A stretch of 4,325 bases of DNA from a virus (Duplodnaviria; Heunggongvirae; Uroviricota; Caudoviricetes). The stretch's first letter is position 1. Each line of letters begins with the position of its first letter. The notes under the pieces are model-generated. The model made no database searches, was not told where the DNA came from, and saw only the letters and a list, made by a program, of their open reading frames with translations. Location: IMG/VR virus record IMGVR_UViG_3300018478_000173; one strand, written 5' to 3'. The translations under genes and the position numbers were made by a program. Positions 1,131 to 3,651 of the stretch are shown piece by piece.

Positions 1131-1349
1131 AATTCCTCACAATTCATGAGGTTGATGATTGTCTGATTGATGAGGAGTTTGTTAAAAAAAACGGGCATGG
1201 TGAATCCCCCTGTGCGGAGGGGTGATATCGTATCATTTCCTGTGTGGCCGACTGATATCACGGACATTTGTTCACCGGGAGGCACCCGGCACCATGCAGT
1301 ATACAGAGATTAGGCATACATCCAGGCTCCTCATCGCAGGAGCCTTTTT
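1131..1349 (+). ncRNA. Unit 4 candidate structured small RNA (~219 nt): closing helix 1195-1202/1290-1297, hairpin 1207-1222, shortened core 1223-1274, hairpin 1275-1289, non-homologous terminator 1325-1349
   Basis: Closing helix GCATGGTG with CACCATGC (8 perfect bp). The 5' conserved block carries small insertions relative to units 2 and 3. Core has the stem TGATATC...GATATCA. Confidence 0.4.
1325..1349 (+). terminator. Intrinsic terminator of unit 4: different sequence, same architecture (GGCTCCT-CATCGC-AGGAGCC then T5)
   Basis: 7-bp stem 1325-1331 with 1338-1344, T-run 1345-1349. Replaces the GCCCCTC hairpin used by units 1-3. Confidence 0.7.
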
Positions 1350-1355
1350 ACATGT

Positions 1356-1384
1356 AAAAAAAACCGCTCCTGGGAAGAGCGGTT
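1356..1384 (-). terminator. Opposing-strand intrinsic terminator: A8 on + (U-run on -) abutting the hairpin CCGCTC-N7-GAGCGG; with 1325-1349 it forms a back-to-back bidirectional terminator around the perfect palindrome TTTTACATGTAAAA (1346-1359)
   Basis: Stem 1364-1369 with 1377-1382, extendable by two A-T pairs; A-run 1356-1363 precedes it on the + strand. Confidence 0.45.
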
Positions 1385-1581
1385 GGCAAGGAAGCAAGGA
1401 ATAAATAACAAAACGTGAAGTAATTTATTCAGCACCCTAATAATACCTTAGAGTAATCACCTTGCGCAACTGTAAGGGCGTATTTCTTTTTTGCGGGCTG
1501 TTTTTCTGTGTGACTTTTGTGTTTCCGGAGGTCAGCCCGTGCCTTCTCTGACTCAGAACATTATCCCGGCCGGGAGGATTC

Positions 1582-3546
1582 ATGGCATTTAAACACTACG
1601 ATGTGGTCAGGGCGGCATCGCCGTCAGACCTTGCTGAACGACTGACACAAAAACTGAAGGAGGGCTGGCAGCCATTTGGCAGTCCGGTGGCCATCACGCC
1701 TTATACCCTGATGCAGGCCATTGCGGCGGAAGGTGATGTCACCACACCAGTGGCGGTGACCGGTAATGAGGGTAAGGCGGTGGCTGTCAGTGCCACCAGC
1801 GACCCGGAGTATTACTTTGTTGTGGTTCTGGCAGGGCAGTCAAATGGCATGTCGTATGGTGAAGGTCTTCCGCTGCCGGAGACATATGACCGTCCGGACC
1901 CGCGTATTAAGCAACTGGCGCGCCGCAGTACGGTGACACCGGGCGGTGTCGCCTGTAAATATAACGACATCATTCCGGCGGACCATTGTCTGCATGATGT
2001 GCAGGACATGAGCCGTCTTAACCATCCGAAAGCGGAACTGTCAAAGGGGCAGTACGGAACCGTGGGGCAGGGGCTGCATATTGCCAAAAAACTGCTGCCG
2101 TTTATACCGGCGAATGCGGGCATTCTGCTGGTTCCGTGCTGTCGTGGTGGTTCAGCGTTCACCACCGGAGCTGATGGCACATACAGTGACGCTGGCGGTG
2201 CCTCGGAGAATTCAGCGCGCTGGGGTGTGGACAAGCCGCTGTATAAGGACCTTATCGGTCGAACAAAAGCAGCACTGAAGAAGAACCCGAAAAATGTGCT
2301 GTTTGCCGTGGTGTGGATGCAGGGGGAATTTGATTTTGGCGGTACGCCGGCAAATCACGCAGCACAGTTTGGTGCGCTGGTTGATAAATTCCGTGCAGAC
2401 CTGACGGATATGGCAGGTCAGTGCGTTGGTGGCTCTGCTGGCGGTGTTCCCTGGATATGCGGGGACACGACGTATTTCTGGAAGCAGAAGAACGAATCCA
2501 CGTACCAGACGGTGTACGGCAGCTATAAAAACAAAACGGAAAAGAATATCCATTTCGTACCGTTCATGACGGATGAGAACGGGGTGAATGTGCCGACGAA
2601 CAAACCGGAAGAAGACCCGGACATTCCGGGTATCGGGTATTACGGTTCGAAATGGCGTGACAGCTCAGCCACCTGGACGTCACAGGACAGGGCGAGCCAT
2701 TTCAGCACCTGGGCACGCCGGGGGATTATTTCCGACCGTCTGGCAACGGCGATTCTGGTGCACGCCGGGAGAACCGCTGAATTCATTACCGGAAAACAGC
2801 CTGATATGGTGAGGCCCACCGTACCTTCCGGTGAAGGTCCGGAGAGAGAGGCGGAAGCCCCGGCCAGTAAGCGTACCCTGATGAGTCTGCTGGCATCCGG
2901 CGAAGACCTGGCATCACAGGGCTGGCGCTATTATCACAAACCGGCGGGCGGAGACAGTGTTAACAAAAACATTGCTGAAGCGGTGGTCAGTGATGCGGGG
3001 GCTACGGGAGGTAAGGCTCTGCAACTGAACAAACCGGAAAACCACATCTGGTTTCTGGAGCATGATGCAGCCGGACAGGGGGCGGAGTTACTGAAGAAGG
3101 GCGGACGTGTGAGCGTACGGTTTAAGTTGCCGGGTTCACTGGTGCCGAATCAGTTTGCCCTGGGCATTTACTGGCAGTTGTCGTCCCTGCCGGAGGGGGT
3201 GATGCTGTCAGGAGAAGGTAACGATATGCTGATGTCTTTCTTCCTGCAGACGGATACGACGAACCTGAACGCGATGCATCACAGGAAGCCGAATGCGAAG
3301 CTGGATACATTCGGGGTCTTTGATAACGGATGGCACACGCTGGCTTTTGAGTTTGCCGGAAACAACAGCATTCAGGTGACACCAGTACTGGATGAGAAAC
3401 GGGGAGCGGCGTTCACACTGGTGAAGTCACCGGCATCGGGGGCGGTGGACAAACTGCAACTGACCGATATATCAAAATCGGCGACGTATACGCTGCTGAT
3501 TGACAGCATTGCGGTGGAAGTGAACAGCACAGACACTGCGGCATGA
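1582..3546 (+). CDS. nanS-p: Prophage-encoded sialate O-acetylesterase (NanS-p-like), 654 aa: N-terminal DUF1737-like domain, SGNH/SASA esterase domain with the GQSN motif, and a long C-terminal domain
   Basis: Intact 1965-nt ORF. GGAGGA at 1573-1578 just upstream of ATG 1582. GQSN at residues 85-88 (nt 1834-1845), characteristic of the sialate O-acetylesterase branch of SGNH hydrolases. The N-terminus MAFKHYDVVRAASPSDLAERLTQKLKEGWQPFGSPVAITPYTLMQAIAAEG matches, from memory, the DUF1737 N-terminal domain of NanS-p proteins of EHEC lambdoid prophages. Function is from recalled homology, not a search. Confidence 0.9.
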   Translation: MAFKHYDVVRAASPSDLAERLTQKLKEGWQPFGSPVAITPYTLMQAIAAEGDVTTPVAVTGNEGKAVAVSATSDPEYYFVVVLAGQSNGMSYGEGLPLPETYDRPDPRIKQLARRSTVTPGGVACKYNDIIPADHCLHDVQDMSRLNHPKAELSKGQYGTVGQGLHIAKKLLPFIPANAGILLVPCCRGGSAFTTGADGTYSDAGGASENSARWGVDKPLYKDLIGRTKAALKKNPKNVLFAVVWMQGEFDFGGTPANHAAQFGALVDKFRADLTDMAGQCVGGSAGGVPWICGDTTYFWKQKNESTYQTVYGSYKNKTEKNIHFVPFMTDENGVNVPTNKPEEDPDIPGIGYYGSKWRDSSATWTSQDRASHFSTWARRGIISDRLATAILVHAGRTAEFITGKQPDMVRPTVPSGEGPEREAEAPASKRTLMSLLASGEDLASQGWRYYHKPAGGDSVNKNIAEAVVSDAGATGGKALQLNKPENHIWFLEHDAAGQGAELLKKGGRVSVRFKLPGSLVPNQFALGIYWQLSSLPEGVMLSGEGNDMLMSFFLQTDTTNLNAMHHRKPNAKLDTFGVFDNGWHTLAFEFAGNNSIQVTPVLDEKRGAAFTLVKSPASGAVDKLQLTDISKSATYTLLIDSIAVEVNSTDTAA

Positions 3547-3583
3547 TAAAAAAAGCCGCCAGTTACCGGAATGGACTGGCGGT
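3547..3583 (-). terminator. Strong hairpin right after the nanS-p stop, oriented as an intrinsic terminator for the minus strand (A7 on + before the stem, no T-run after it)
   Basis: A-run 3548-3554; stem GCCGCCAGT (3555-3563) with ACTGGCGGT (3575-3583), 9 bp including one G-U; 11-nt loop. It may still slow plus-strand transcription after nanS-p, but it lacks the U-tract of a classic + terminator. Confidence 0.4.
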
Positions 3584-3651
3584 GGTAATACCCATGGAGA
3601 AATATAAAGGAACGATACTTTCGTGCTCTGTTTTTTTAAATGAAAACAGTT

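Follow-up and report, generated by a model that had tools for sequence, protein, structure and literature searches.

Two facing hairpins between an STnc100 array and nanS-p: a predicted meeting point of convergent small-RNA genes in a lambdoid prophage

Why would a tandem array of small-RNA genes in a prophage end in two hairpins that face each other across a perfect palindrome, upstream of a sialate esterase gene? The question is raised by positions 1324-1384 of a 4,325-nt stretch of viral DNA (the whole of which is called the window here), which we would place in the 'moron' region of a lambdoid prophage of E. coli O43 RM10042 that has Q, tRNAs, the array, nanS-p and holin, and no stx. In the window, nanS-p occupies 1582-3546 of the plus strand and encodes a SASA carbohydrate esterase of the NanS-p type (654 aa, WP_039264423.1 in RefSeq). 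A preliminary description proposed that the array is closed by a foreign terminator and insulated from nanS-p in both directions. It is quite likely, we think, that 1324-1384 is instead the meeting point of two convergent small-RNA (sRNA) genes, predicted in this strain.

Two facing hairpins of the intrinsic-terminator type are indeed there, as a terminator scan and folding both bear out. The one described in unit 4 of the array (terminator 1, 1324-1349, plus strand) reads GGCTCCT (1325-1331), CATCGC, AGGAGCC (1338-1344) and T5 (1345-1349), and direct reading, the scan (site 1324-1345, tail TTTTTACATG) and the fold agree with what had been reported. Its complete stem-loop, AGGCTCCT/CATCGC/AGGAGCCT, spans 1324-1345, the last stem base being also the first base of the T5 run. 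Under the definition used here (a GC-rich stem of at least 5 bp, a short loop and a U-rich tract directly after), this is an intrinsic terminator, with eight pairs (five G-C), a loop of six and then TTTTT, folding on the plus strand at -13.5 kcal/mol (z -4.9, equalled by none of 200 shuffles). On the minus strand it has no U-run, and it is preceded by CATACATCC.

The second hairpin was said to lie at 1364-1382 behind eight A and to be of a type that terminates on the opposite strand, which proves correct by reading, scan and fold alike. Direct reading gives A8 (1356-1363), CCGCTC (1364-1369), CTGGGAA and GAGCGG (1377-1382); on its own, minus strand this terminator 2 of 'type I' (1356-1384) is AACCGCTC/TTCCCAG/GAGCGGTT from 1384 to 1362, with a U8 tail from 1363 to 1356 that overlaps the last two stem bases, and the scan lists it at 1384-1362 with the tail TTTTTTTTAC. 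It has ten pairs (five G-C) if G-U is allowed and eight if the stem is strictly Watson-Crick, a loop of three and then TTTTTTTT, and folds at -13.6 kcal/mol (z -4.1, again with none of 200 shuffles equal). The plus-strand sequence after it is UUGGCAAGG, which makes it one-directional. The two stems are 16 nt apart. The window as a whole has 15 terminator-like sites, compared with 3.6 +/- 1.8 when it is shuffled.

To which gene does each hairpin belong? For the first, the answer departs from the earlier claim that unit 4 carries a hairpin non-homologous to that of units 1-3. The window contains four cmscan matches to STnc100 (RF02076), and unit 4, the fourth copy of the tandem array (1166-1355, plus strand), aligns over the whole model, terminator included (positions 1-206, 141.3 bits against a gathering score of 47). 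Its terminator columns are in register with the consensus at high posterior probability and every pair is canonical, the stem differing from the consensus by one compensatory pair (C-G to U-A) together with changes in the loop. Judged from this alignment, hairpin 1 and the STnc100 terminator are homologous, hairpin 1 being the allele of EcOnc27 type that is common in Stx phages. The northern probe for EcOnc27, reverse-complemented, matches 1295-1330, and unit 4 is a plus-strand dyad member of the EcOnc27/sRNA103 type. Its RNA probably extends from about 1195 (GCAUGGUGAAUCC) to about 1352, because the mapped 5' and 3' ends of PasD2 fall on homologous positions, the latter being the end of the PasD2 T-run (Pearl Mizrahi et al. 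2021, PMC8550237).

For the second hairpin, the sequence argues for a minus-strand sRNA gene in the interval from the array to nanS-p, with the hairpin at its 3' end. An nhmmer profile, built from 27 type II (Sp4-type) sequences only and with its first ~9 positions inside the bait used for collecting loci, matches the minus strand from 1568 to 1357 (97.2 bits, E 2.1e-30, model positions 1-208 of 209). The homology to the EcOnc08/21/42 family, which has no Rfam model, and to the EPEC sRNA 'E2348C_1409.E2348C_1408.IGR' thus extends over the full length and lies on the strand opposite nanS-p. The predicted long form (1356-1553, 5' end estimated at 1541-1553) would be antisense to the whole nanS-p leader; as a whole it has no unusual structure (z -1.3). 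A promoter-like site for this form, with a -35 ATGCCA (1588 to 1583) overlapping the nanS-p start codon, a 17-nt spacer and a -10 GATAAT (1565 to 1560), lies at 1560-1588 in the very stretch that served as bait, so that its conservation is not informative.

A short form of ~78 nt (1356-1433) is also predicted, consisting of a 5' hairpin, a single-stranded CUUGCUUCCUUGCC stretch, the terminator and U8, and folding at -20.6 kcal/mol (z -4.9). It would probably start from a conserved internal promoter, since the mapped start of AsxR is analogous. This sigma-70-type candidate (1440-1469, minus strand) has a -35 TTGCGC (1469 to 1464), an 18-nt spacer and a -10 TATTAT (1445 to 1440). All 47 unique sequences collected have TTGCGC followed after exactly 18 nt by TATTAT (90 loci) or by TAAAAT (28 loci), the latter in the AsxR, AgvB and EcOnc03 types; the -35 is invariant in the alignment and the -10 of AsxR falls in the same columns. 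The internal promoter as the sole start was rejected: the published EcOnc08/21/42 probe sits upstream of it and of the predicted start of the short form, so a longer RNA is made in Sakai and EPEC.

Several known sRNAs were considered for the minus-strand partner and set aside. It matches no Rfam family, its sub-threshold matches to unrelated sRNAs (rli32, RsaOG, OmrA-B and GcvB, the last at 13 bits) all being anchored on the terminator. AsxR and AgvB (RF02703 and RF02702) are recognized by a covariance-model match that includes a ~42-nt conserved 3' region (...GUAUCUCAUGC..UUGCCCGAACCCAYUCGGGC), and no such match was found in 1330-1620 at E values up to 10; three control loci (L053, L005 and L048) scored 56-88 bits with the same models. 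The northern probes for PasA and PasD have no match in the window with up to six substitutions, and PasA lies downstream of the esterase, not upstream. HnrS (EcOnc10-12) was likewise discarded as the element present, being ~5 kb away from the dyads in Sp9 and Sp10.

Shiga-toxin-type prophages of E. coli have been reported to carry convergent sRNA dyads in the interval from the late promoter to the lysis genes (Tree et al. 2014, PMC4104026; Sy and Tree 2021). These dyads are found downstream of Q/PR', between moron genes and a conserved ORF that precedes the lysis cassette, and in the RefSeq context of the window the order is Q, tRNAs, an HTH gene, the array, the SASA esterase, DUF1378, DUF826 and holin, nanS-p being the 'conserved hypothetical phage ORF' that follows the dyad. 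The two members, on opposite strands, have facing terminators within a few tens of nucleotides, as they do here, and the junction is another example of this already described arrangement. In Sp4, the end of EcOnc05 (plus) is 24 nt from EcOnc08 (minus) (Table S2, PMC4104026). Strand, Hfq binding, RNA sizes and 3' ends have all been determined for such homologues and may apply here by analogy. Expression and Hfq binding of EcOnc05, 08, 21, 27 and 42 were established by Hfq-CRAC and northern blots (PMC4104026), and the Sakai Hfq-CRAC peak EcOnc08 maps onto hairpin 2, starting at the end of the terminator 2 U-tract. The EcOnc08/21/42 RNA is of the strand opposite to nanS-p, since its probe is of the nanS-p-sense strand (PMC4104026), and the EPEC homologue has its RNA-seq 3' end at the last base of the U-tract and behaves like an sRNA in RIL-seq chimeras (PMC8550237). 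The sizes of the homologous RNAs disagree, with ~271 nt on the Sakai northern (PMC4104026) versus 182 nt in EPEC coverage.

The closest systems resemble the window in different parts. In Sp4 (EcOnc05/EcOnc08-EcOnc21) and the Stx1 phage Sp15 (EcOnc42), the dyads occupy the same position between the moron region and nanS-p in the same orientation, with an STnc100 match as the plus member, a minus member homologous over its whole length (E 2e-30) and the same internal promoter motif. However, their hairpin 2 stem is GCCCGCG/CGCGGGC rather than CCGCTC/GAGCGG, the distal part is only ~70% identical, and the window differs in having an EcOnc27-type terminator 1 and a plus member amplified to four tandem copies. 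Conversely, in AU5Stx1 (KU977419), AU6Stx1, SH2026Stx1 and the Shigella phages POCJ13 and Ss-VASD, the counterpart at the stx1B/acetylesterase junction shares terminator 1, hairpin 2 and the distal part (93-97% identical) but has another cassette between the internal -10 and hairpin 2 (CGTTAATTAATTGTTCATATTG...), a single STnc100 copy and stx1 upstream. EcOnc27 (sRNA103)/AsxR downstream of stx2B in Sp5 and the AgvB and EcOnc03 dyads have the same convergent layout, the same terminator-1 family and, in the minus-strand promoter, the same -35 TTGCGC with 18-nt spacing; in the Stx2-type loci even the TTTTTACATGTAAAAA junction is identical. Unlike AsxR and AgvB, the window has a different cassette and terminator stem, and neither CACAACA nor the FnrS-pairing 5' region.

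How general is the layout? Comparing the junction across related prophages, as the preliminary description had suggested, recovered it in 112 of 114 nanS-p upstream regions (an STnc100-type terminator, 6-11 nt, A6-A10 and a hairpin), a sample gathered with a 26-mer from the nanS-p start and made up of close relatives, so that conservation is partly shared ancestry. Hairpin 2 occurs in 17 unique variants, each of which folds (-7 to -19 kcal/mol) and has a tail of at least six U. For most variants of types I and II the minus-strand fold is the more stable of the two, and the Stx1c variant has G.U on the minus strand where the plus strand has C.A; this strand evidence is thin, favouring minus in types I and II and being neutral or slightly reversed in type III. 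In type III loci, which served as positive controls for Rfam, only 0-2 nt separate STnc100 from AsxR or AgvB on the other strand. The consensus that RNAalifold gave for 37 long-form sequences aligned with MAFFT lacked even the terminator; the alignment is poor, terminator types differing in register, and folds of individual variants were used in its place. The dyad seems not to be a general property of STnc100: among 137 STnc100 boxes in other genomes, taken at one genome per species and with a crude detection of terminator 1 (50 scored as 'noT1'), only 4 have a facing A-run and hairpin.

The suggestion that the junction is a recurrent module boundary is supported by its mosaicism. Four hairpin-1 alleles are freely recombined with three or four hairpin-2 types (three unrelated stems) across the 112 loci, and in a spread sample of 25 of the 358 matching E. 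coli genomes, 16 matches end at window positions 1361-1365, the boundary between the A-run and hairpin 2. The junction is present in full in 97 complete genomes. Farther along, an exchangeable cassette of the EcOnc08/42 type (1391-1439) is 92.5% identical to Sakai Sp4/Sp15 and 69% to AU5Stx1a, to which its flanks are 93-97% identical. The GCCCCTC allele of units 1-3 adjoins hairpin 2 in 83 of the 112 loci, and almost all of these 83 have just one STnc100 copy; the end of an array therefore needs nothing special.

For this strain we infer expression, start sites and termination, with a role for Hfq and read-through under Q, along the following lines. On the plus strand, terminator 1 would end the last of four tandem sRNA genes of the STnc100/EcOnc27 type; on the minus strand, terminator 2 would end an sRNA of the EcOnc08/21/42 family, whose gene would start near the nanS-p start codon to give a long form of ~190 nt antisense to the nanS-p leader, with a probable second start for the short form at the conserved internal promoter. 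Each hairpin with its U-tail would be a Rho-independent terminator and also an Hfq-binding 3' module, as in other Hfq-dependent sRNAs. In the lysogen, the two terminators together would stop transcripts of either sRNA gene from entering the other, and transcription of unit 4 from entering nanS-p. Once the prophage is induced, polymerase coming from PR' and modified by Q would pass all the plus-strand terminators and reach nanS-p and the lysis genes.

Could the pair rather be a dedicated two-way insulator that closes the array, with a foreign terminator in unit 4 and the palindrome as a recombination joint? Two facing terminators do exist and the boundary is a real one for recombination, but terminator 1 is a homologue of the family consensus and its allele is common among loci with a single copy, the same layout accompanies a single STnc100 copy in 105 loci, the palindrome is not conserved, and the region to the right of hairpin 2 is homologous to an experimentally detected minus-strand sRNA. 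Insulation in both directions fails on orientation as well: because nanS-p is on the array's strand, a minus-strand terminator cannot shield the array from its transcription, and the co-directional gene yields no minus-strand transcription to block. The comparative data thus largely refute the insulator, which we hold to be improbable. Marginally less probable still is that hairpin 2 only stops pervasive antisense transcription arising within or downstream of nanS-p and belongs to no dedicated sRNA gene. Read-through from an Esr41-like gene (3548-3621) is a possible source of such transcription, a second minus-strand terminator and a candidate sRNA lie just past the nanS-p stop codon, and the long form is without strong overall structure. 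However, the homologues give discrete Hfq-CRAC peaks, a northern band and sRNA-like RIL-seq chimeras, the promoter hexamers keep a fixed 18-nt spacing across six otherwise unrelated cassettes, and AsxR, AgvB and EcOnc03, which occupy the same slot, have mapped primary 5' ends (PMC4104026).

There remains the palindrome. It had been described as 14 bp long (TTTTACATGTAAAA, 1346-1359); this sequence is present, but the perfect palindrome is 16 bp, TTTTTACATGTAAAAA at 1345-1360, belonging to neither strand and made of the T-run of terminator 1, ACATGT and part of the A-run. It is the longest in the window and its length is only marginally unusual: when the window was dinucleotide-shuffled 1000 times, 22% of the shuffles contained a perfect palindrome of 14 bp or more and 5.1% one of 16 bp or more. 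In unit 4, ACATGT corresponds to the 3' tail of the STnc100 model, where ACAUGU is aligned with the consensus UaUaugc. The palindrome arises as a by-product where T-run, STnc100 tail and A-run meet, which would have been joined by chance, and is no independent element. It is not conserved, being perfect in 10 of the 112 loci with a centre that varies (ACATGC, TATGGAC, TGTGGGC). A bidirectional intrinsic terminator between convergent genes is a single hairpin with an A-tract on one side and a T-tract on the other; the junction is similar in serving both directions within ~60 bp with facing A/T tracts, but has two separate hairpins, each with a one-sided tract, and CATACATCC before hairpin 1 and TTGGCAAGG after hairpin 2. 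That the palindrome is functional (as a protein-binding or recombination site), or that the hairpins form one bidirectional terminator, is thus exceedingly improbable: its length relative to shuffles and the identical 16-mer at the EcOnc27/AsxR junction of Stx2-type loci speak for a function, but the variable centre, the match to the STnc100 tail, flanks that are obligatory U-tracts and the lack of any RNA fold (0 kcal/mol) speak against it, and each hairpin is without a U-tract on its other side.

Reading 1324-1384 as the meeting point of a convergent dyad has consequences for annotation and for the biology of these prophages. Among the matching records listed, RefSeq annotates nothing under the junction, and the minus-strand partner has no Rfam model, so readers will keep rediscovering the hairpins. 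A non-Stx bovine E. coli prophage can now be credited with a likely Hfq-dependent regulator that is antisense to the nanS-p (sialate esterase) leader, and the dyad is shown to travel with nanS-p and not with stx. The terminator-allele mosaic, the six cassettes and the fixed promoter spacing are the data that this reading brings. A broader reading, which we put forward as no better than tentative and more doubtful than not, is that the interval between nanS-p and STnc100 is a 'plug-in' slot for seed cassettes. The slot may combine an invariant minus-strand promoter (TTGCGC, 18 nt, TATTAT or TAAAAT) with interchangeable terminators and recombining bodies of 30-55 nt, at least six of which may be unrelated (AsxR, AgvB-like, EcOnc03, EcOnc08-type, AU5-type and the window's own). 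The sRNA of the window may then be an un-named chimera, an EcOnc08/42 cassette on an AU5Stx1a backbone, with a trans activity that relies on its GU-rich single-stranded region and a cis activity as antisense RNA of the nanS-p leader. If this is true, the 'anti-sRNA' design of Tree et al. would extend from the AsxR/AgvB group to all nanS-p-linked dyads, and retention of the dyad might be explained by shared flanks that make the seeds exchangeable.

Direct reading of the window confirmed all the coordinates of the preliminary description of this junction. Hairpin 1, on the + strand, consists of the stem GGCTCCT (1325-1331)/AGGAGCC (1338-1344) followed by T5 (1345-1349), and hairpin 2, on the - strand, lies behind an A8 run (1356-1363) with the stem CCGCTC (1364-1369)/GAGCGG (1377-1382). 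A terminator scan picks up both sites, one per strand; the window has 15 terminator-like sites versus 3.6 +/- 1.8 in shuffles. The two RNAs fold at -13.5 kcal/mol (z -4.9, + strand) and -13.6 kcal/mol (z -4.1, - strand), with 0/200 shuffles as good in either case, and these are thus two stable, oppositely oriented terminator-like hairpins. Since neither is accompanied by a U-tract on the opposite strand, they are one-way terminators facing each other, which rules out a single bidirectional terminator. This facing layout recurs across related prophages. Among 120 IMG/VR loci gathered with a 26-mer from the start of nanS-p, 114 had enough upstream sequence to be compared, and the succession of an STnc100-type terminator, 6-11 nt, A6-A10 and a hairpin was found upstream of nanS-p in 112 of them.

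The significance previously attached to a 14-bp palindrome between the hairpins was not upheld. The palindrome (TTTTACATGTAAAA, 1346-1359) is perfect and correctly placed, its true extent being 16 bp (1345-1360), the longest perfect one in the window. It is composed of the terminator 1 T-run, the STnc100 tail and the terminator 2 A-run, and as RNA it forms no structure by itself (0 kcal/mol). Perfect palindromes of 14 bp or more appear in 22% of dinucleotide shuffles of the window, and those reaching 16 bp or more in 5.1%, so that by itself it is weak evidence. The perfect 16-mer is present in 10/112 loci and its centre varies (ACATGT in the window and Stx2-type loci, ACATGC in AU5 and Stx1c types, TATGGAC or TGTGGGC elsewhere); a function as an element in its own right has no support.

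Hairpin 1 had been viewed as a non-homologous substitute, but cmscan alignment identifies it as a homologue of the STnc100 terminator. Unit 4 aligns to the full STnc100 model (RF02076), its terminator columns with high posterior probability and 0 non-canonical pairs, and its stem (CAGGCUCCU/AGGAGCCUU) departs from the consensus (aagGcccCu/aGgggCcuu) in its loop and in a single compensatory pair, U-A replacing C-G. The ACAUGU 3' of its U-run aligns with the 3' tail of the model ('aUaugc'), a tail that closes an outer helix. The 3' module of the unit (ATGCAGTATACAGAGATTAGGCATACATCCAGGCTCC...) is of EcOnc27 type throughout: the northern probe published for EcOnc27, once reverse-complemented, matches it, and it shares 97% identity with the sRNA next to stx1B in phage AU5Stx1. 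The allele abutting hairpin 2 is GCCCCTC, that of units 1-3 of the window, in 83/112 loci, GGCTCCT in 19/112 and GGCCCCT or GGCCTCT in 10/112. STnc100 is single-copy in 108 of 112 nanS-p-linked loci, with two copies in one and four in three (the window and comparison loci L036 and L049). The stem of unit 4 thus differs as alleles ordinarily do, and a role as an array-closing device is rejected.

The array itself comprises four tandem STnc100 copies on the + strand (376-571, 635-844, 906-1104 and 1166-1355; cmscan, 120-142 bits versus a gathering score of 47). A promoter-like site is present in the STnc100 units, in unit 4 at 1159-1195, with a -35 TTGTCT and an extended -10 TGTTAAAAA (TG at 1180-1181, hexamer TAAAAA at 1183-1188), and the putative start at ~1195 (GCAUGGUGAAUCC) coincides with the 5' end that RNA-seq gave for PasD2, a related RNA, so each unit is probably an independent gene. 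Upstream of the array, at 33-82, TCTGGAGATTCAGGGGGCCAGTCTA occurs twice in tandem as a perfect direct repeat with a 25-nt unit. In other genera, box positions suggest tandem STnc100 triplets, e.g. in Candidatus Pantoea communis (locus L204, spacing ~250 nt) and likewise on a Pantoea plasmid (locus L173). The window matches, at 100% identity, a lambdoid prophage of E. coli O43 str. RM10042 (NZ_CP028122.1), whose genes run in the order RusA, Q, a DNA methyltransferase, tRNA-Ile, tRNA-Arg, a TolA-like gene, an HTH gene, 1.9 kb without annotation, the SASA carbohydrate esterase nanS-p (window 1582-3546), DUF1378, DUF826 and holin; no stx gene is present.

What, then, does hairpin 2 terminate? nanS-p and the array are on the same strand, which leaves the proposed insulation of the array from nanS-p in both directions unsupported, since a minus-strand terminator requires a minus-strand transcript. 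Convergent sRNA genes were described in Sakai prophages Sp3, 4, 5, 9, 10, 11, 15 and 17, as for EcOnc27, which faces AsxR after stx2B (Tree et al. 2014, PMC4104026). In Sp4, EcOnc05 (+, 1179806-1179914) lies 24 nt from EcOnc08 (-, 1179938-1180010), itself adjoined by EcOnc21 (-, 1180016-1180101) (PMC4104026, Table S2), and the Sp15 (stx1) copy is named EcOnc42 and is encoded on the other strand from stx1; on northerns, EcOnc08/21/42 measure ~271 nt (PMC4104026). Mapped to the Sakai sequence, the EcOnc08 peak starts at the A-run and spans the hairpin. The EcOnc08/21/42 probe is of the nanS-p-sense strand, and the RNA is hence antisense to nanS-p. An EPEC homologue was detected by RIL-seq ('E2348C_1409.E2348C_1408.IGR', minus strand, 1444797-1444978, 182 nt; PMC8550237); its 3' end is the final U-tract base and its 5' end falls 41 nt before the ATG of the esterase gene. 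This RNA comes from E2348/69 prophage PP6 (L123 3300-3330/L125), where an ISEc13 (IS4-like) insertion has truncated STnc100 in its 5' part upstream of the esterase, lowering the match to 75.5 bits, and left the minus-strand partner intact.

Across loci, hairpin 2 takes the form of three unrelated stems: type I (CCGCTC/GAGCGG), the form of the window, of which Stx1c phages have a variant, type II (GCCCGCG/CGCGGGC), the most frequent and that of EcOnc08, and type III (GCCCGA/TCGGGC). For the 17 unique variants, folding energies range from -7 to -19 kcal/mol, and on the minus strand each runs into a tract of at least U6. A profile HMM built from 27 unique type II sequences only matches the window from 1568 to 1357 on the minus strand, over its full length (97.2 bits, E 2.1e-30). 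Together with the homologue data, this argues that hairpin 2 terminates a predicted sRNA gene of the EcOnc08/21/42 family, which would fill the interval separating the array from nanS-p, in antisense to the leader of nanS-p.

Type III loci match Rfam AsxR or AgvB, 0-2 nt from the opposite-strand STnc100 match. An Rfam search of the window returned neither even at E up to 10, which places its minus partner outside these families; it has their design in common, but not family membership. Each of the 47 unique sequences (118 loci) has TTGCGC, exactly 18 nt and TATTAT or TAAAAT on the minus strand, the -35 being invariant in the alignment of related loci and the -10 being TATTAT in 90 loci and TAAAAT in 28, every one type III. 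The AsxR -10 occupies the same alignment columns as the TATTAT of the window. Primary 5' ends have been mapped for AsxR, AgvB and EcOnc03 (Tree et al., PMC4104026), and the 54-nt length of AsxR is consistent with a start 6 nt after this -10. By analogy, the window would also yield a short RNA of 78 nt (~1433 to 1356), in addition to the long form (1356-1553), with a predicted fold (-20.6 kcal/mol, z -4.9) comprising a 5' hairpin, single-stranded CUUGCUUCCUUGCC, the terminator and U8. The published EcOnc08/21/42 probe lies upstream of its predicted start and could not detect it; the boundary between the Sakai EcOnc08 and EcOnc21 CRAC peaks coincides with this candidate internal promoter. The minus strand at 1400-1433 is GU-rich (CACGUUUUGUUAUUUAUUCC), and cmscan gives a sub-threshold GcvB match at 1355-1477 (13 bits, E 1.1), probably by chance; were it GcvB-seed-like, this sRNA would stand opposite to the AgvB sponge in its role. 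A + strand hairpin (CCTTGCGCAACTGTAAGG, 1460-1495), with a T-rich run 7 nt further, includes the -35 of the internal promoter and could attenuate non-antiterminated + strand transcription before nanS-p; its type II equivalent (CTGCGCAATAGCGCGG then CCTTTTTCG) looks a better + strand terminator.

STnc100 boxes are widespread in Enterobacterales, but when a single genome from each species was scanned, a facing A-run and hairpin were found at 4/137 occurrences (one E. coli-type locus, two in Enterobacter whose hairpin differs, and one further locus). No facing hairpin follows PasD2 in EPEC prophage PP2, whose esterase has a 5' region unlike that of the window nanS-p. On these comparisons, the dyad, i.e. 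the two convergent sRNA genes, is thus tied to the specific module upstream of nanS-p rather than to STnc100 itself. At the edges of nanS-p, a 12-bp palindrome (TCCCGGCCGGGA, 1564-1575) lies directly upstream of and overlaps the Shine-Dalgarno (GGGAGG) as well as the -10 GATAAT of a candidate distal minus-strand promoter; it is inside the 26-mer bait, so its presence across loci says nothing on conservation. A strong terminator (GCCGCCAGT...ACTGGCGGC, then T7) abuts the stop codon, and a second minus-strand sRNA candidate (3548-3621) has a weak Esr41-like match (cmscan, 25 bits versus a gathering score of 102, E 0.12). In Sakai Sp4 this position is taken by EcOnc52, and in EPEC PP2 by the terminator of a minor PasA isoform of 236 nt, the body of the window candidate being unlike either.

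The suggestion that the junction marks recombination between modules fared better. Four terminator 1 alleles combine with the hairpin 2 types in seven ways, the left part of the junction is matched in 358/5426 complete E. coli genomes and the whole in 97, and 16/25 matches of a spread sample end at query 66-70 (window 1361-1365), the A-run/hairpin 2 boundary. The minus-strand gene is mosaic too: terminator 1, hairpin 2 and the distal part are 93-97% identical to AU5Stx1a, whereas the exchangeable cassette (1391-1439) shares 92.5% identity with Sakai Sp4/Sp15 and 69% with AU5Stx1a. An 8-nt tandem duplication (GCAAGGAA GCAAGGAA, 1386-1393 and 1394-1401) lies exactly at the join of the AU5Stx1a-like and Sp4/Sp15-like parts and looks like a footprint of the recombination that created the chimera. 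The cassette slot holds six clusters at 80% identity. Of the preliminary interpretation, the facing terminators and the module boundary thus stand, while the non-homologous hairpin, the nanS-p insulation and the significance of the palindrome do not.

Each flanking gene is, by sequence, a homologue of an experimentally detected sRNA, with strand, Hfq binding, sizes and 3' ends coming from literature data on these homologues (PMC4104026, PMC8550237). RM10042 would be expected to make both RNAs, each hairpin and U-tail possibly doubling as an Hfq-binding module. In the lysogen, the terminator pair would stop each sRNA transcript from entering the other gene, and would also bar unit 4 transcription from nanS-p. 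After induction, Q-modified polymerase would read through the + strand terminators, as is general in lambdoid biology. The long form could act in cis on nanS-p. Such an architecture has been described before, as the convergent sRNA 'dyad' of lambdoid prophages; particular to the window are a rare four-copy plus member and an unannotated chimeric minus member, and the cassette-slot pattern is a modest comparative contribution.
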